Source: Alphaproteobacteria bacterium
GTDB taxonomy: Bacteria > Pseudomonadota > Alphaproteobacteria > UBA7887
Assembly (NCBI GenBank): GCA_965216755.1
Contig: CBDCGL010000011.1
Location: forward strand, 256,001-320,000
Length of the DNA: 64,000 nucleotides
Reading direction: 5' to 3'
Shown here: in pieces, positions 2,567-52,622 of the stretch
Position numbering within the stretch: the stretch's first letter is position 1
Layout of the letters: each line of letters opens with the position of its first letter
The notes under the pieces: generated by a model
Seen by the model: only the letters and a program-made list of their open reading frames with translations
What the model was told of the DNA's origin: nothing
The model's database searches: none
Program-made: the position numbers and the translations under genes

Positions 2567-3505
2567 ATGAAGACAAAAGTTGCTATCATCGGCTCCGGAA
2601 ATATCGGCACCGATCTGATGATCAAGATATTGCGCACGTCAAATACGCTAGACGTGGCCGCCATGGTCGGGATTGATCCGCAGTCCGATGGGTTGGCGCG
2701 CGCCGCCCGCATGGGTGTCGCCACCACTGACAAAGGCGTCGACGGCCTTCTCGCCATGCCGGTGTTTCACGACGTGCGCATCGTGTTCGACGCGACATCG
2801 GCGCGCGCCCACGCGCGACACAGTGAAGTTTGCCTTAACCATGGCAAGCAGATGATCGATTTGACGCCGGCGGCGATCGGCCCCTATGTCGTACCCGTGG
2901 TCAATATGACCGCACATTTCGACAAACCCAATCTCAATATGGTTACATGCGGTGGCCAAGCAACTATTCCTATGGTTGCGGCGGTGCGTCGGGTTGCCAC
3001 ACGCGTCCCCTATGCTGAGATCGTGGCGTCGATTTCATCACGCTCTGCCGGCCCAGGTACGCGGGCCAACATTGACGAATTCACGCAAACCACGGCCCGC
3101 GGCATCGAGACCGTGGGTGGCGCTGAACGCGGCAAGGCAATCATTGTTCTCAATCCGGCCGAGCCGCCGATGATTATGCGCGACAGCGTATTCGTTTTGA
3201 GTGAGGGCGCCGAACCGGAACAGATCGACGAGTCAATTGCCGCGATGGTCGAAGACGTCCAGGCCTATGTGCCAGGATACCGACTCAAACAGGATGTTCA
3301 GTTCGAGCGTATTGGCAACAACCAGCCGATCCGTATTCCAGACTTCGGCGAGTTTTCTGGCTTGAAAGCGTCAGTTTTTCTTGAGGTTGAAGGCGCGGGT
3401 CATTATCTGCCTAACTATGCTGGAAATCTCGATATCATGACGTCGGCGGCCCTGAAGACCGCTGAGAATTTCGTCGCCATGCATTTGGCTGGAGAAGCCG
3501 CATGA
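2567..3505 (+). CDS. dmpF: acetaldehyde dehydrogenase (acylating)
   Basis: [33 protein letters not shown]; start moved to ATG 2567. Confidence 0.95.
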
Positions 3506-46756: not shown

Positions 46757-49700
46757 ATGTCGATGGCGGATGTTCGCACATGGCTTGAGGAGCTGGGGCT
46801 CGGCGAGTACGCGGATGCGTTCGCGGCTGAGCGGATCACATTTGACGATCTGGCAAAGCTCGACGTCGACGATTTGAAAGAATTGGGCCTGCCCATCGGT
46901 CCGCGAAAACGCGTCCTGGCGGCGATTGACGCATTGGCATCGGCGGATGCGTCGGGCGCGTCATCGTCCGCGCCTCTTCGGGCCGAGCGACGCCAGATCA
47001 CGGTCATGTTCTGCGACCTGGTCGGCTCGACGGCGCTCTCGGAACAACTCGATCCCGAAGACCTGCGCGAGCTCATGCAGGCCTATCAAGAGGCCTGCGG
47101 GGCGGTGATCGAACGCTATGGCGGCCATGTCGCGCAATATTTGGGCGACGGTCTGATGACCTATTTCGGCTGGCCACGAGCCCACGAAGACGATGCCGAG
47201 CGGGCGATCCGCGCCGGGCTGGATATTGTCGGGGCAGTCAAAAAGGTCAAAGCGCCCGACTCGCTGCCCGGCCCGCTGCCCGATCCGCTGCAAGTCCGTG
47301 TCGGCATCGCCACGGGCCCGGTGGTGGTGGGCGAGACCGGCGGCGGCGATGCGTCGGTGCCCAAACTGGCTGTGGGCGAAACACCAAATCTGGCGGCGCG
47401 GGTACAAGGTCTCGCCGCGGCCGACCAGATTGTCATCGGTTCGACCACGCGGCGTTTAGTCGGCGATACGTTTGATCTCGACGATCTCGGCGCGCACAGC
47501 CTGAAAGGCATCGTCGAACCGGTGCAGACTTGGCGAGTGACTGGCGTTGCACAAACCGAAGGGCGTTTTGAAGCGCGCGGCGGCCACCTAACGCCGTTCG
47601 TCGGTCGCGATGCCGAAATCGCCATGATCGTAGAGCGTTGGGACCAAGCCAATGCGGGCGAAGGACAAGCCGTTTTTCTGTCCGGCGAGCCTGGTATCGG
47701 CAAGAGCCGCATCACCCAAGTGCTGCGTGAGCGTGTCGCCGACGAACCACATATTCGGCTGCGCTACCAATGCTCACCCTACTATACAAATTCGGCCTTG
47801 TATCCGGTGATCGAGCAATTGGAACGCGCCGCCGGGTTCGCCCGCGATGACAGTGCTGCCGCAAAGCTAGACAAACTGGAGCGCTTGTTGCGGCAGTCTA
47901 CCAGTGACGTCACGGCGACGGCGGCGCTGTTTGCGCCTCTTCTCAATGTTGACTCCGGCGACCGCTACCCGGCCCTCAATGTCAGCCCGCAGAAGCAAAA
48001 AGAGATGACCCTTCAGGCCCTCGCCGACCAAGTGATAGGCCTGGCGGCGAAACAACCGGTGCTGATGATCTTCGAAGACGCCCATTGGATTGACCCAACG
48101 ACGCATGAAACTTTGGATCTGATCGTACCGGCGATCGCCGGTCATCGCGTGTTGGTGGTGATCACCTATCGGCCCGAGTACGAGCCGCCGTGGGCGGGGC
48201 TTGCCCATGCGACACCTCTGACCCTGACCCGCCTGGGTAAGGCCAATGCGGCGGCGATGGTGGAGCGCGTGACCGGCGGCAAGCTGCTGCCGGATGATGT
48301 GCTGGATCAAATCGTCGCCAAGACCGACGGTGTACCGCTGTTTGTTGAAGAGTTGACCAAGACAGTGCTGGAAAGCGGCGCCGAGACAGCGCATACGATT
48401 CCGTCGACACTCCAAGACTCGTTGATGGCGCGCCTCGATCGGCTGTCGCCGGTCAAGGAAACGGCGCAAATCGGCGCCTGCATCGGCCGCGAGTTTTCAC
48501 ACGAACTCCTCGCTGCCGTCTCACCGCTCGGAGAGAATGAACTCAACGACGCGTTGCAGCAATTGATAAACAGCGAGCTAATTTATCGTTCTGGTTCAAG
48601 CTATGCTTTCAAACATGCATTAATTCAGGATGTCGCATACGTCAGCTTGCTCAAAATCCGTCGGCAGGATTTACACGGACAGATCGCATCGGTGTTGCGT
48701 ACCAGATTGGCGGAAACGGTGGCGTCTCGACCCGAGGTGCTCGCGCATCATTTGACCGAAGCGGGCGACGCAGAGAATGCCGTTGATTATTGGCATCGAG
48801 CGGGCAAATTGGCGTTTGTCGCGTCTGCGTTCGCCGAAGCTGACGCGCATTTGCGCCGCGGTCTGGAACTGATCCCGGAGGTTGGCGATGAACAACTGCG
48901 CGGACAGTTCGAACTCGGGATTAGGACGATTTTAGGCCTAACTTCACTCAACATGTACGGTTACGGCGCCGATGGCGTACTTGCATCATTTCGACGTGCG
49001 GAGGAACTGATCGGCCATGCCGAGAATGCCTCTGATTTGGTGCCAATCTTGTCCTCGCTCGGCGCCTACTATTGGGCGCGTGCGGACCTAAGAAAAACTG
49101 TCAAATACTATTCTAATCTAGTTTCGGAGGCCGAGAAATCAGCCGACCGGGATCTTCTGGTGCTCGGCCGCACCTGGCTAGGCAGCATTAAATTTCACGT
49201 TGGCGAAGGCGCGGAGGGACGTGCGTTGTTGGAAGCGGCGCTGGACGTTTACGACGTGGCTCGCCACGGTGATCTGTCGATCGCGCTGAGTGCCCACGAT
49301 GCTGGAATCATGGCATCGGCCTGGATTGCATTCACCGATATTTGGTTGGGTTTTCCACTTAAGGCGCGGCGTCAGATCGATAAAACCGCAGCAATGTCAC
49401 GGGAGATCAAGCATCCGGTGTCAGCGGCGGTCGGCCTTTCGATGTCGGCTTACGGCGCGGCGCATTTGAGAGACGGCCAAAGGGCCGCTGATCTTGCGAG
49501 TGAATGCATCGTCATTTGCGAGGATCAGAATATCCCCTACTGGATGGGGTGGGCCAAGGTGGCGCGGGGTGCGGCGCGCAACGAACTCGGTGATTATGTC
49601 GGTGCGTTGGAGGATTTGGCATGGGCAAAGGATCTGATGGACAGCAATGGCTCGTTCCAAACCAACGGTTGGATTAACCTGCACCGAGCCGAGATCGAAC

Positions 49701-50086
49701 TCAATCGCAGGCGCTTAGATGAGGCCGAAGATGCGGTGTGGCAAGTGCGTCAACATGTGGCATCCTCCGGCGAAGTCGTAATGTCGCCGCTTGGTGAGCG
49801 CCTCGCCGCCGAAGTCGAGCTTGCCCGAGACGGGATCGGCACCAGTCGCGCGGAGTCTTGGCTTATTGAAGCTCTTCGTGTTTCTCGCGAGCAGAAATAT
49901 CGACTAAACGAACTCAGACTCGCCAATTCTATTGCGCGCCTTTGGCAGTCCCAAGGTAAACATCAGCAGGCGCACGACCTTTTGGCGCCGATTTATGGCT
50001 GGTTCACTGAGGGCTTTGACACAAAGGATCTTCTGGAAGCCAGGGCGCTGTTGGATGAATTGGAAGCGCACTATAGGCAACGGTGA
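46757..50086 (+). CDS. SAM + class III nucleotide cyclase + AAA/STAND ATPase + TPR protein
   Basis: N-terminal SAM, FCDLVGST, LGDG, Walker A GEPGIGKS, Walker B FEDAHW, C-terminal YGWFTEGFDT.DL. Confidence 0.9.
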   Translation: MSMADVRTWLEELGLGEYADAFAAERITFDDLAKLDVDDLKELGLPIGPRKRVLAAIDALASADASGASSSAPLRAERRQITVMFCDLVGSTALSEQLDPEDLRELMQAYQEACGAVIERYGGHVAQYLGDGLMTYFGWPRAHEDDAERAIRAGLDIVGAVKKVKAPDSLPGPLPDPLQVRVGIATGPVVVGETGGGDASVPKLAVGETPNLAARVQGLAAADQIVIGSTTRRLVGDTFDLDDLGAHSLKGIVEPVQTWRVTGVAQTEGRFEARGGHLTPFVGRDAEIAMIVERWDQANAGEGQAVFLSGEPGIGKSRITQVLRERVADEPHIRLRYQCSPYYTNSALYPVIEQLERAAGFARDDSAAAKLDKLERLLRQSTSDVTATAALFAPLLNVDSGDRYPALNVSPQKQKEMTLQALADQVIGLAAKQPVLMIFEDAHWIDPTTHETLDLIVPAIAGHRVLVVITYRPEYEPPWAGLAHATPLTLTRLGKANAAAMVERVTGGKLLPDDVLDQIVAKTDGVPLFVEELTKTVLESGAETAHTIPSTLQDSLMARLDRLSPVKETAQIGACIGREFSHELLAAVSPLGENELNDALQQLINSELIYRSGSSYAFKHALIQDVAYVSLLKIRRQDLHGQIASVLRTRLAETVASRPEVLAHHLTEAGDAENAVDYWHRAGKLAFVASAFAEADAHLRRGLELIPEVGDEQLRGQFELGIRTILGLTSLNMYGYGADGVLASFRRAEELIGHAENASDLVPILSSLGAYYWARADLRKTVKYYSNLVSEAEKSADRDLLVLGRTWLGSIKFHVGEGAEGRALLEAALDVYDVARHGDLSIALSAHDAGIMASAWIAFTDIWLGFPLKARRQIDKTAAMSREIKHPVSAAVGLSMSAYGAAHLRDGQRAADLASECIVICEDQNIPYWMGWAKVARGAARNELGDYVGALEDLAWAKDLMDSNGSFQTNGWINLHRAEIELNRRRLDEAEDAVWQVRQHVASSGEVVMSPLGERLAAEVELARDGIGTSRAESWLIEALRVSREQKYRLNELRLANSIARLWQSQGKHQQAHDLLAPIYGWFTEGFDTKDLLEARALLDELEAHYRQR

Positions 50087-50112: not shown

Positions 50113-50336
50113 GTCATGGCCGGGCTTGACCCGGCCATAAGTAAGCACAACCCCCAGCGATGCGTGCGCCCCCAGGCCGTTGGTGTTTACTTGCCCACGG
50201 GTCAAGCCCGTGGGCGACGGGTGAGCTAAATGCGTTCTCGCCACAACAAAGCTGCTCATGACCGGACTTCTATCCGGCCACAAGTAACACTGCCGCGCGC
50301 AAGGCATGCTGCGCCGCGGATCAAGCCTCCGGGTGA
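50113..50336. repeat. REP/RIME-like palindromes (two units)
   Basis: GTCATGGCCGGGCTTGACCCGGCCAT and CCCACGGGTCAAGCCCGTGGG; degenerate second unit at 50257-50336. Confidence 0.65.
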
Positions 50337-50564
50337 ACATTGTGACGTGTTGGCCAAAAAAATTAGTTGACAGACAACACAACTTGAGGTGGAGTGTATA
50401 GCAAGCTTGGGGAAATGGCGCCGAGCGAATATTTTCGAGAGCAATAATAAGCCCATAAGACAAACAGTCGGCGACTGTGACCGTTCCCATATTGGCGTGG
50501 CGGGGGTCGTGGTTATCGTTTTGGTCGCGTAATTTTTGACCCATGCTTGCATAAAAAAGTGAAC

Positions 50565-50960
50565 TCACCAATAGTCGAGCATCATATGAGGGATGCTATA
50601 AAACATACATCGAAAAAGACTCGGCTCGCATTTCAACAAATGTGGGAGAACAGCCGGTAATTCGGCACATACATAGATCACCAAAAATACGATGTTGACG
50701 CTGGGGAACATGATCGCGCCAAAATTCAGGACAATCGTCACTACAAATGCCTTTTTCGCGGTGGTTGTCTGCAAAATCATGAGCATGTTGGCCAAAAATA
50801 TTAAGGCCGCCAATACAAAAGTAAACTGAATATACAGGGTGCGACTGGACGGTTCAAATACCTCTACAAACACGCCCAGCAATATGTACGCAAATTTCGG
50901 CAAGACATAGTTGATCATCATCCATGCGGCGGAATCCTGGTTTATTAATAGTCGCACCAC
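50565..50960 (-). CDS. hydrophobic hypothetical protein, paralogue 1 (candidate immunity protein)
   Basis: Aligns end to end with 51851-52249; extended -10 upstream. Confidence 0.65.
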   Translation of the reverse strand: MVRLLINQDSAAWMMINYVLPKFAYILLGVFVEVFEPSSRTLYIQFTFVLAALIFLANMLMILQTTTAKKAFVVTIVLNFGAIMFPSVNIVFLVIYVCAELPAVLPHLLKCEPSLFRCMFYSIPHMMLDYW

Positions 50961-50996
50961 TTATTCTTTCGAGTACGAGTAGATAGTGTAGTGAAT

Positions 50997-51005
50997 ATCA
51001 TACCA
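50997..51005 (-). promoter_or_regulatory. extended -10 element TGgTATGAT
   Basis: About 37 nt upstream of paralogue 1; mirrored at paralogue 2. Confidence 0.45.
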
Positions 51006-51241
51006 CAATGTATCCCGATGCCATATTCGCAATTTCGAGTGAACATCCAAGTTGGTCTTGACCACTCAGCGACATCTACCACCAAACAATGCGACGGCAG
51101 CATATGGCATCATCAATCATGATAATCAAGTAATAGTCCAATAAACAACCCGTTAAGCAATACCGAAGAACGTCGCACGTCTTCGATGGACGTGCAATTC
51201 ACGCTCTGTGCAGTAATTAAGTAAGCAAGGGAAAGTTCACA

Positions 51242-51694
51242 GTGAGTCTGGATAGTCGTGAGATCCAACGTGCGATAGAAGAAGCACTTGAGGAGCAGAA
51301 TAGACGCTTCAGTGGGTTAGATGAAATTCCTGCGGTCCATGAGCCAGGGATTAGATTTGGTGGACGCGGTTCACTTTTGCGTGTCAATAGTTTCGACGCC
51401 TACGTAGGACTAGGGTTTTGGGGGCCTTGGGTCGCCATATGGTCGCAGGTTGGAGTAATTGGACCGGACCGTGATCGAAGTCGGTACACGATTGATGTCT
51501 CGTACAGATCCGTGAGTGGCGGACGATCAAGTTTTGACGTTGAGATTAAGGGCGGCGACGAGTTTGTTAGATCGGTTGCGAATGGGTCCGGTTCTGAACG
51601 TGTGACGATTTCCGGTAACGTTGCGACGACGGTGTCGATTCGATTCAGAAGCCATAGCTTTGGGCAAGACATTCGAGTGAAAGTGATTGGCTGA
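51242..51694 (+). CDS. hypothetical protein resembling the colicin Z C-terminal domain
   Basis: WGPWV, SSFDVEI, GNVATT..IRFRSHSFGQDIRV motifs recalled from that family; not verified by search. Confidence 0.55.
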   Translation: MSLDSREIQRAIEEALEEQNRRFSGLDEIPAVHEPGIRFGGRGSLLRVNSFDAYVGLGFWGPWVAIWSQVGVIGPDRDRSRYTIDVSYRSVSGGRSSFDVEIKGGDEFVRSVANGSGSERVTISGNVATTVSIRFRSHSFGQDIRVKVIG

Positions 51695-51850
51695 TAGCGG
51701 ATACCGAAGCATCGGGTTAAGCATGCGTATGGTGATGCATGGCCGTGCTGGATTGACGATGGTCGGCTTTGGGCGCGATGTGGCGGACCAAGGCAGGACG
51801 AAAATGATTATGGTCAACAGTGAAAGCGTCGGAATGCGGTCGCAGGTGCG

Positions 51851-52249
51851 TCAATAATCGAACATGAAGAAAAAGGGTAAGCTCGGAAATAAGCAATTGA
51901 AAGGGTGATATGGACATATCGACAAATGTTCGATGCTCATTGGCAAAGTCAGCATCATATGAATTGTCATAAATACAATATTTACGTGTAAGAAAAAATT
52001 GGCGGCAAAATTGAGCCATATTGTTACTATGAAAGCCTTTCTAGCGGCCTCGGTTTGCAGGAGGACAACCATATTCAAGAAAAAGATCACGGCCGCCTCG
52101 AAGAAAGTAAATTGTGTCGACAAGCCCGGTGCGACAATCTCAAAGGCCCGCATAACTGTCGAAAATGCCGTCGAGGACAGTTCCGGCAAGACGAAATTGA
52201 TCATCATCCATGCGGCAGAGTCTCTGTTGGACAGCATGAGTATAGGCAA
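51851..52249 (-). CDS. hydrophobic hypothetical protein, paralogue 2 (candidate immunity protein)
   Basis: Shares DSAAWMMIN.VLP, QFTF, KAF.VTI.LNF, VNIVF and two C-terminal Cys with paralogue 1. Confidence 0.65.
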   Translation of the reverse strand: MPILMLSNRDSAAWMMINFVLPELSSTAFSTVMRAFEIVAPGLSTQFTFFEAAVIFFLNMVVLLQTEAARKAFIVTIWLNFAANFFLHVNIVFMTIHMMLTLPMSIEHLSICPYHPFNCLFPSLPFFFMFDY

Positions 52250-52288
52250 TCCATTAGTGAACCAATAAGATATAGGTGAAGTGTAAGC

Positions 52289-52297
52289 ATTGTACCA
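52289..52297 (-). promoter_or_regulatory. extended -10 element TGgTACAAT
   Basis: About 40 nt upstream of paralogue 2. Confidence 0.45.
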
Positions 52298-52502
52298 TAG
52301 GTTGTTTCGGCAAGTGATCGGTCGTTTCAGGGCACAATGCGCAGTTTGGGCTACGTGTGAGGGTGGCGGAACGAGTTGTTGGGGGTTACGCGGTTAACCA
52401 CGGTCGAAGCAACAGCGCATTGATACAGGTGCAGGGGGGGGCGGGAAGGTTGGCATTGCGCGGCCGCCGTGGCGGTCGGACAGTGGTGGCACCGATGGCC
52501 AA

Positions 52503-52538
52503 TAAAAAGGGGCCGCGTGGCGGTTCACGCAGCCCCTT
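52503..52538 (-). terminator. terminator downstream of tRNA-Asn
   Basis: AAGGGGCTGCGTG..CACGCGGCCCC followed by TTTT on the minus strand. Confidence 0.7.
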
Positions 52539-52546
52539 GATGAAAC

Positions 52547-52622
52547 TGGCTCCCCGGGCCGGACTCGAACCAGCGACAAGTCGGTTAACAGCCGACTGCT
52601 CTACCAACTGAGCTACCGGGGA
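52547..52622 (-). tRNA. tRNA-Asn (GTT)
   Basis: TCCCCGGTAGCTCAGTTGGTAGAGCAGTCGGCT-GTT-AACCGACTTGTCGCTGGTTCGAGTCCGGCCCGGGGAGCCA, 76 nt with CCA. Confidence 0.97.

Follow-up and report, generated by a model that had tools for sequence, protein, structure and literature searches.

A low-GC islet beside tRNA-Asn of an alphaproteobacterium encodes a candidate colicin Js-like toxin between two paralogous membrane proteins, its putative immunity proteins

The islet and its three genes

The DNA examined here is a stretch of 64,000 nucleotides (nt) from contig CBDCGL010000011.1 of assembly GCA_965216755.1, an alphaproteobacterium of the UBA7887 lineage, and is called the window throughout. It holds a small AT-rich islet in which a plus-strand open reading frame (ORF) of 150 amino acids (aa), a candidate toxin of the colicin Js/Z type, stands between two minus-strand ORFs of 131 and 132 aa for paralogous membrane proteins, which are candidates for its immunity proteins (Table 1). 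An earlier note, made from the letters of the window alone, had singled out these ORFs as a bacteriocin-like module, and all three are present with the strands, lengths and positions that it gave. Its statement that the islet is AT-rich and lies directly 3' of a tRNA-Asn gene also holds, because the tRNA is on the minus strand and the guanine and cytosine (GC) content of the approximately 2 kb of the islet is 0.462 compared with 0.567 in the whole window. Measured in segments of 400 nt, the GC content is 0.43-0.46 between positions 50400 and 52200 and 0.57-0.62 on either side, and the genes which flank the islet have a GC content of 0.59 and 0.61.

The 150-aa protein

The 150-aa protein was matched by the NCBIfam model NF041262, "colicin Z C-terminal domain-related protein", with 72.2 bits (cut-off 50, E 3.3e-20) over residues 54-147 and model positions 2-87 of 87, which turns the resemblance to colicin Z's C-terminal domain, pointed out in the earlier note, into a scored family membership. 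A six-frame search of the genome with the same model gave 73 bits and a single copy. The full-length model NF041263, "colicin Z family toxin", gave only 26 bits against a cut-off of 300, with residues 58-145 aligned to positions 142-224 of 229 and the N-terminal part unmatched; the protein is thus not a full colicin Z. The three motifs on which this resemblance had been based (WGPWV, SSFDVEI and IRFRSHSFGQ) are present and all of them fall in conserved columns of the family. The protein has no Sec signal, as had been noted, its N-terminus being charged and non-hydrophobic (the highest 19-residue hydropathy mean is 1.26). No match for it was found in Pfam, PADLOC or PHROGs, the nearest chain in a sequence search of the PDB had an E value of 1.2, and a scan of viral contigs revealed no relatives. 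PADLOC had no match at E <= 1 for any of the three islet proteins.

A profile search retrieved 70 relatives of the toxin domain, some of which are named "colicin Z C-terminal domain-related protein" or "Colicin type 7 (Cja)". They form three groups: about 35 clusters of proteins of approximately 125-135 aa from environmental assemblies, some of them given the first of these names by NCBI in metagenome-assembled genomes of Pseudomonadota, Hyphomicrobiales and Alphaproteobacteria; proteins of 92-94 aa from Xenorhabdus, Photorhabdus, Yersinia (here named "Colicin type 7 (Cja)"), Cedecea and Raoultella; and a few longer forms of 222-237 aa. In an alignment of 67 sequences W60 and S96 are invariant, while A55, G61, W63, F98, D99, G115, R134, S137 and H138 are at least 90% conserved, and the protein of the window retains W60, W63, S96, F98, D99, G115, R134, S137 and H138, which belong to the family patterns W..W (first strand), S-F-D, G-P-G and R..S-H-S. 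One metagenomic relative of 192 aa (P0067) has a domain like the C-terminal one of colicin Z and the N-terminal helix described below, fused to a C-terminal piece of Phage_Mu_F (PF04233), which hints at a phage-borne form of the toxin domain.

An AlphaFold model built from the 67-sequence alignment reached a predicted local distance difference test score (pLDDT) of 84.9, with blocks of the domain above 90, compared with 60 for a model from three sequences. In the predicted fold residues 5-24 form a helix, which a disordered linker (pLDDT below 50 at residues 33-42) joins to an eight-strand beta-sandwich made of residues 48-149. The Foldseek matches, whose TM-scores were 0.4-0.58, were to PirA, p24 GOLD domains and the Tk-SP C-terminal domain, and in VIA-align, where 19 chains had a Z of at least 8, the best Z was 9.9, for SID1 and GOLD domains. 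The predicted domain is therefore a generic jelly-roll or GOLD-like sandwich, a fold whose class is clear and by which the mechanism is not revealed.

The part in front of the sandwich is characteristic of the environmental proteins. About 28 of 33 sequences of this clade have a conserved N-terminal helix motif, roughly E-F-R-G-x-x-L-x-E-A, with which S-R-E-I-Q-R-A-I-E-E of the window is aligned, and three others (P0032, P0033 and P0035) have in its place a glycine-rich start, G-F-G-G. It had been suggested in the earlier note that the first 41 residues, which end in FGG, could be a leader. This suggestion was not upheld, as the glycines at residues 40-41 are not conserved in the 33-sequence clade alignment and no ABC/C39 exporter is encoded within about 9 kb. 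A class II microcin with a double-glycine leader was rejected on the same grounds, the unconserved glycines and the lack of an ABC or C39 domain in 11 neighbouring proteins between 41 and 61 kb. The segment E-I-P-A-V at residues 28-32 resembles the TonB box of colicin Ia, and we gave this likeness no weight.

The membrane paralogues

The 131-aa and 132-aa ORFs can be aligned from end to end with 48% identity (E 5e-36) and have 62 invariant columns in common, among which are the motifs quoted for them in the earlier note; their paralogy was thus correctly recognized there. The proportion of synonymous differences between the two genes (pS) is 0.81, which is saturated, while that of nonsynonymous differences (pN) is 0.38, and this indicates an old duplication in which both copies are under constraint at the protein level. 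Three to four membrane helices are suggested for each protein by hydropathy, the hydrophobic stretches of the 131-aa protein being at approximately residues 14-34 and 41-68 and in a long segment at 70-111. The sole cluster of positive charges is found between helices 2 and 3, and the C-terminal tail has two conserved cysteines. Neither protein has a lipobox, so they are not lipoproteins of the type which is encoded beside colicin Js (see below), and neither is matched by a family of Pfam, NCBIfam, PADLOC or PHROGs. A sub-threshold Pfam match of the 131-aa ORF to Nairovirus_NSm was dismissed as a chance match of hydrophobic sequence. A word-based search with the window membrane protein retrieved the protein itself alone, and scores in the ESM Atlas were 0.83 or less for the 132-aa protein.

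The extended -10 words which had been pointed out upstream of both genes are present (TGGTATGAT and TGGTACAAT, 35-40 nt before the starts); what they do not carry is statistical weight. A motif scan lists the first of them, TGGTATGAT at 51003-50995, and promoter-like sites in the region number 3 compared with 3.2 in shuffled sequence, so these words are leads only.

Related loci with the same pair of genes

Scans of genomes and of metagenome contigs gave four loci (L004-L007) which encode the helix-bearing form of the toxin, of 125-147 aa. In all three loci that are informative (L004, L005 and L006) a hydrophobic ORF of 94-105 aa with three helices lies directly after the toxin gene and is convergent with it, and in L007, a metagenome contig of 1 kb, an ORF interrupted by a stop and resembling the C-terminal half of such a partner is found in the same position. 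The source genomes of L004-L006 contain exactly one toxin match and one membrane match each, and the two are adjacent. The co-occurrence of the toxin and membrane families, which the earlier note had named as a check of its proposal, was therefore observed in 3/3 related loci, with a fragment in the fourth. In L006 (3021-3417) a frameshift in a T run, near 3240-3250, splits the toxin homologue, and the membrane ORF convergent with it is intact; an error of assembly could explain this, as could decay of the toxin with immunity retained.

In an alignment of seven membrane proteins N18, P22, N59 and N80 are invariant in all seven, which amounts to one asparagine per helix, and a basic residue precedes helix 3. 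In the family helix 1 contains N-x3-P, helix 2 an asparagine and helix 3 L/M-N, and there is a basic loop. When 400 other genomes of the class were searched with a profile of five members, nothing matched at E <= 0.001, and in the window's own genome the profile found two further genes (E 5e-6 and 2e-5). These two have in common with the window proteins the start of helix 1, W-x-x-x-N-x-x-x-P, and they were aligned by hhalign with the partners of L004-L006 at an E value of 2.6e-5 and a probability of 75%, by which they bridge both groups. Because of the common register, the invariant polar residues, the specificity of the profile and these bridging genes, we treat the window paralogues, the extra pair and the L004-L006 partners as one family, which on the sequence evidence appears to be an undescribed membrane family defined by one asparagine in each of three helices.

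The environmental proteins of approximately 125-135 aa (for example P0007, P0024 and those of L004-L007) thus have the N-terminal helix motif and the domain in common with the window toxin, and in L004-L006 the likeness extends to a convergent three-helix membrane ORF with one asparagine per helix. The membrane partners of the window differ from those of L004-L006 in that they are about 30 aa longer, have a cysteine-containing tail and are duplicated around the toxin, while L004-L006 have a single copy.

The two further membrane genes of the window's own genome lie in tandem at G000:C11:4765243-4765960 (locus L026, 7743-8960, minus strand), in a stretch with a GC content of 0.44-0.50 compared with 0.61 in the surroundings. 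They are distant members of the family and are convergent with a prophage-type lysis cassette, composed of an endolysin (phrog_873, E 9e-54) and an Rz-like spanin, in which an embedded ORF with a lipobox-like signal is read, from its sequence, as the outer spanin. No colicin-Z-type domain is encoded at this locus, the only NF041262 match of the genome being that in the window. One of the two genes reads on for 262 aa, antisense into the spanin genes, which makes its end uncertain. The pair have the appearance of orphan immunity genes located at a prophage end; the other possibility is that the function of the family is connected with phages. Orphan immunity genes are a general phenomenon of bacteriocin and polymorphic-toxin loci, and this genome resembles them in having four genes of putative immunity type and one toxin. 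The idea of an extra or orphan immunity gene, raised in the earlier note for one of the window paralogues, is in accordance with these two toxin-less members.

Colicins Z and Js and their partner genes

In the colicin Z locus, according to the colicin Z paper (PMC6668396), the gene cza, for 237 aa, is convergent with czi, for a protein of 151 aa with four predicted membrane helices. Resistance to colicin Z is conferred by czi, and colicin Z itself degrades peptidoglycan in vitro and forms no typical pores; the same paper also describes colicin Js as killing. Its authors proposed that a central portion within colicin Z, residues 121-171, is the one that kills, which they call not fully verified (PMC6668396). 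In the NCBIfam alignment the sandwich starts at about position 142 of the full-length model, so this "central" segment overlaps with it.

We found the plasmids pColZ (NZ_MK599282.1, E. coli B1356) and ColJs (NC_002809.1, Shigella sonnei) by a tblastn search with the relative P0058; the window toxin itself gave no match when it was searched against plasmids by tblastn. In all five annotated plasmid loci (pColZ, ColJs and those of Klebsiella, Serratia and Yersinia) a convergent partner gene for 129-151 aa follows the toxin gene after a gap of 40-63 nt, as calculated from the annotated coordinates. The partner is the four-helix Czi in pColZ and a protein with a signal peptide or lipobox (Cji-like) in ColJs and in the Klebsiella, Serratia and Yersinia plasmids. 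A chromosomal homologue of 92 aa in genome G595 also has a convergent lipoprotein, which is 26% identical to the ColJs partner (E 3e-12). The toxin genes of ColJs (94 aa) and G595 (92 aa) encode the domain only, and in Serratia a full-length "colicin Z family toxin" is likewise paired with a Cji-like lipoprotein. In Serratia it is thus the common C-terminal domain, and not the N-terminal part, to which the type of partner corresponds. This pairing, and the small size of colicin Js, which has hardly anything beyond the domain, speak for the domain being the lethal module. The genes of ColJs are presumably those named cja, cji and cjl, and the upstream gene for 65 aa we take to be the release gene cjl. 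In the library that was searched, no paper was found which names colicin Z C-terminal-domain, family, -like or homologous proteins, nor one on cji of colicin Js.

The layout proposed in the earlier note, with a small membrane protein on the opposite strand as partner of the toxin, agrees with the gene order of pColZ and ColJs. The colicin Z immunity protein had also been named there as a reference for the membrane proteins, and here the outcome was negative, the hhalign probability with Czi being 0.1% for both paralogues. The second paralogue occupies the same place relative to the toxin gene as czi, the partner gene in ColJs and the L004-L006 membrane ORFs.

The likeness to colicin Js comprises the same toxin domain (the 94-aa ColJs product is named "colicin Z C-terminal domain-related protein" by the annotation pipeline PGAP), a small single-domain protein without signal peptide, the location of the module in low-GC mobile DNA and a convergent downstream gene, for approximately 130 aa at a distance of 63 nt in ColJs and for 132 aa at 156 nt in the window. 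The differences are that the ColJs partner is a lipoprotein (P0074) and the window partners are polytopic membrane proteins, that colicin Js has neither the N-terminal helix nor the linker, that ColJs has the additional upstream gene, and that colicin Js is plasmid-borne in Enterobacterales with a receptor, CjrC, which is specific to Shigella and enteroinvasive E. coli. With colicin Z the window has in common the C-terminal domain, a module of low GC content relative to its replicon and a convergent gene for a polytopic inner-membrane protein, which in pColZ is the immunity gene. Here the differences are that the 140 N-terminal residues of colicin Z have no counterpart in the window ORF, that pColZ has one immunity gene where the window has two, and that Czi is unlike the window membrane proteins.

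Distribution and origin

The toxin domain is rare and its distribution is patchy. It was found in none of 40 relatives, in 2 of 400 other genomes of the class (G061 and G397), in 2 of 400 genomes sampled from the phylum (G061 and G595) and in 2 of 251 genomes of the order around G793 (G793 itself and G794, which added no new loci). G397, of the same class as the window genome, holds a protein which is labelled Alphaproteobacteria by NCBI. At its locus L008 (G397:C120, 733-2404) two exported paralogues with 70% identity to each other stand on either side of a shorter toxin homologue (1534-1773), a layout that resembles the one in the window with a different type of partner; these paralogues match the Cji-like lipoproteins weakly, with an hhalign probability of 4%. 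The foreign composition of the islet and the patchy spread of the domain indicate that the islet was acquired horizontally.

Setting of the islet in the window

The genes near the islet encode a 1109-aa protein with SAM, adenylate-cyclase and AAA_16 domains, a pyridoxal-phosphate-dependent TrpB-like enzyme, an EamA transporter, a glutathione S-transferase and a short-chain dehydrogenase, and no integrase, exporter, secretion system or lysis gene was found among the 11 neighbours scanned between 41 and 61 kb. The 3' end of tRNA-Asn is not repeated anywhere in the window and the tRNA is the only Rfam element of the islet region, so an insertion of the integrase type is not supported. In five of the nine loci of relatives scanned for tRNAs a TrpB-like gene is followed by tRNA-Asn. 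Beyond this point only the tRNA itself matches the window and the downstream DNA is different in each relative (in one a tripartite ATP-independent periplasmic (TRAP) transporter, in another a helix-turn-helix protein and a cysteine-rich ORF), which places the islet at a break point of synteny. tRNA genes are located at less than 400 nt from other islets of the family as well (Met in L006, Gly in L007 and Pro in L010, in addition to Asn in the window), and in L005 tRNA-Tyr is 2.2 kb away. In the islets that were read (window, L004-L007 and L010) no integrase was seen.

Table 1. Features of the islet and its borders in the window
Feature	Position	Strand	Remarks
Low-GC islet	50350..52330	.	between the SAM/cyclase/AAA_16 gene and tRNA-Asn
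Membrane paralogue 1, 131 aa	50565..50960	-	divergent from toxin gene; candidate second or extra immunity protein
Extended -10-like word TGGTATGAT	50995..51003	-	35 nt before start of paralogue 1; consensus match only
Colicin Js/Z-type toxin candidate, 150 aa	51242..51694	+	ORF, NCBIfam, predicted fold
NF041262 colicin_Z_Cterm match in toxin ORF	51401..51682	+	residues 54-147
Membrane paralogue 2, 132 aa	51851..52249	-	convergent with toxin gene, 156 nt after it; candidate cognate immunity protein
Extended -10-like word TGGTACAAT	52289..52297	-	40 nt before TTG start of paralogue 2; consensus match only
Terminator-like hairpin, 13 pairs (9 G-C)	52507..52538	-	directly after tRNA-Asn; tRNA-side limit of islet
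tRNA-Asn (GTT), sole tRNA of window	52547..52622	-	tRNA scan; Rfam tRNA 67 bits

At the other end of the islet, the gene for the 1109-aa protein (46757-50086) encodes a large signalling ATPase, to judge from its SAM, adenylate/guanylate cyclase and AAA_16 domains, which are followed by a long C-terminal region without a Pfam match. In the relatives examined this gene is not beside tRNA-Asn. Just after its stop codon, at 50121-50210, there is an imperfect inverted repeat of 28 nt (79% complementary, with 34 nt between the arms), probably the terminator of the gene or an element of the repetitive extragenic palindromic (REP) type at the far edge of the islet.

Interpretation of the islet

We consider it likely that the islet encodes a toxin like colicin Js together with membrane immunity proteins of a new class, which would be present as one cognate copy, one old extra copy and two orphan copies. 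The 150-aa toxin would be made in the cytoplasm without a signal peptide. Its clade-specific N-terminal helix and flexible linker may serve uptake or release, like the unstructured N-termini of colicins, and the sandwich of approximately 90 residues, of which the 94-aa colicin Js almost entirely consists, would be the lethal part. We infer that the target of the toxin would be the cell envelope of related bacteria, reached from the periplasmic side; envelope action is proposed because of the analogy with the peptidoglycan degradation by colicin Z and because every partner protein seen is located in the envelope. The convergent 132-aa polytopic inner-membrane protein would be the cognate immunity protein and would, in the producer and its kin, block the toxin at the inner membrane. 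The 131-aa paralogue, which is divergent from the toxin gene, may be an old extra copy under purifying selection, either with a second specificity, against a related toxin of competitors, or as a back-up, and the two toxin-less members beside the prophage lysis cassette would be orphan immunity genes.

Several results weigh against this interpretation. Neither an exporter nor a lysis or release gene was identified among the 11 neighbours of the islet, and no SOS box or release gene was identified in its surroundings. The partners in L004-L006 are only 15-23% identical to the 132-aa window paralogue, and in hhalign the match of the window pair to them is weak (75 columns in register, E 1.3e-4, probability 54%). 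When 1.84 billion representatives were searched by HMMER with no more than the two window paralogues as query, these two were the sole matches, which means that these copies are far diverged. Beside the distant toxin homologues in G061 and G397 the window membrane family is not found. The first strand of the window toxin, YVGLGFWGPWV, deviates from the clade consensus WAPPLFWGPWV. Czi, the Cji-like lipoproteins and the window membrane proteins are mutually unrelated, so immunity does not simply track the domain, and pColZ, with a Czi unrelated to the lipoprotein partners, is an exception that has to be kept in mind when the domain is taken for the lethal module. Finally, the predicted sandwich is of a fold typical of binding modules with no recognizable enzyme site, and the authors of the colicin Z study assigned the binding of the receptor CjrC to the colicin Js-like C-terminal part (PMC6668396).

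The last two points lead to an alternative, in our opinion improbable, in which the sandwich is a module for binding a receptor or ligand only, and the 150-aa protein is non-toxic, a binding protein or an adaptor which cooperates with the membrane proteins in a different function of the envelope. Its structural neighbours (GOLD domains, the SID1 ectodomain, collagen-binding domains, PirA and lectins) are in accordance with this, as are the role given to the C-terminal part in the paper on colicin Z (PMC6668396) and the lack of any matching enzyme family in Pfam, NCBIfam and PDB searches. However, the domain is almost the whole of the 94-aa ColJs protein, and colicin Js kills according to the same source (PMC6668396); in G595 and in the plasmids examined the domain stands alone, with 92-94 aa, together with a convergent envelope partner. 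Moreover, a specificity of the CjrC type cannot explain why S96, D99, R134, S137 and H138 are conserved from enterobacteria to alphaproteobacteria, and small low-GC islets with a patchy spread are typical of conflict genes.

An intracellular conflict system, that is, phage exclusion, abortive infection or a pair of the toxin-antitoxin kind, with the membrane proteins as effectors and the soluble protein as sensor or regulator, we regard as quite improbable. It was retained because of the possible phage-related role of the membrane family, two members of which adjoin the end of a prophage lysis cassette, where exclusion genes are commonly found, and the soluble protein, without a signal peptide or a nearby exporter, would suit it too. 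None of the three proteins is matched in PADLOC or PHROGs, though, the soluble protein scores in a bacteriocin domain family founded on exported colicins, and the convergent layout is the same as in pColZ, where czi was shown to confer immunity (PMC6668396). We find it very improbable that the islet is a decaying remnant, with a toxin inactivated through its diverged first strand and immunity genes alone kept against the toxins of competitors. The near-invariant A55-P56 of the clade's "APP" is replaced by G-L in the window toxin and the linker is unusually long, longer than in the environmental clade, the genome has four membrane genes and one toxin, and in L006 a frameshifted toxin is accompanied by an intact membrane gene. 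But the ORF is intact, its score exceeds the curated cut-off, the nine residues of the family listed above are retained, and its pN is below pS when compared with relatives.

The colicin Js-like toxin with membrane immunity proteins can be extended to a wider hypothesis, which we offer as speculative and doubtful as a whole. The sandwich of approximately 90 residues of colicins Js and Z would be the lethal module of a bacteriocin family present throughout the Pseudomonadota, and not a CjrC-binding part. It would kill from the periplasm by a mechanism new for colicins, for example as a jelly-roll which binds or cleaves an envelope precursor through the cluster of S, D, R and S-H residues, and its neutralization would have arisen independently on at least three occasions, through a lipoprotein, the four-helix Czi and the family with one asparagine per helix. 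In marine alphaproteobacteria it would travel as integrase-less islets of 1-2 kb beside tRNA genes, and prophages would also spread its immunity genes as orphans.

Significance

The toxin domain itself was already known, since the window protein is a scored member of a catalogued family and the NCBI pipeline would name it automatically. As far as our literature searches reach, what appears to be new is the three-helix asparagine membrane family as the regular partner of the helix-bearing clade, the duplication of the membrane gene around the toxin together with two putative orphan copies where a prophage ends, the argument from comparison that what the partners respond to is the shared domain and not the central segment, and the presence of colicin Js-type modules in free-living Alphaproteobacteria. 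Should the interpretation be wrong, what remains is an ordinary islet acquired by horizontal transfer.

To our knowledge, colicins Js and Z are the least understood of all colicins, no structure of them has been solved and their killing mechanism is only partly defined. The published domain assignment of these colicins is uncertain, and the finding bears on the question which part is the toxin. The shared domain occurs alone, with a convergent partner gene for an envelope protein, from enterobacterial plasmids to alphaproteobacterial chromosomes, full-length and short forms of the toxin can use the same Cji-like partner, and a third, undescribed family of membrane partners appears to exist. 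Colicin-type bacteriocins would in this way be extended to free-living Alphaproteobacteria, with a compact pair of 150 aa and 132 aa that is suited to structural and mechanistic work.

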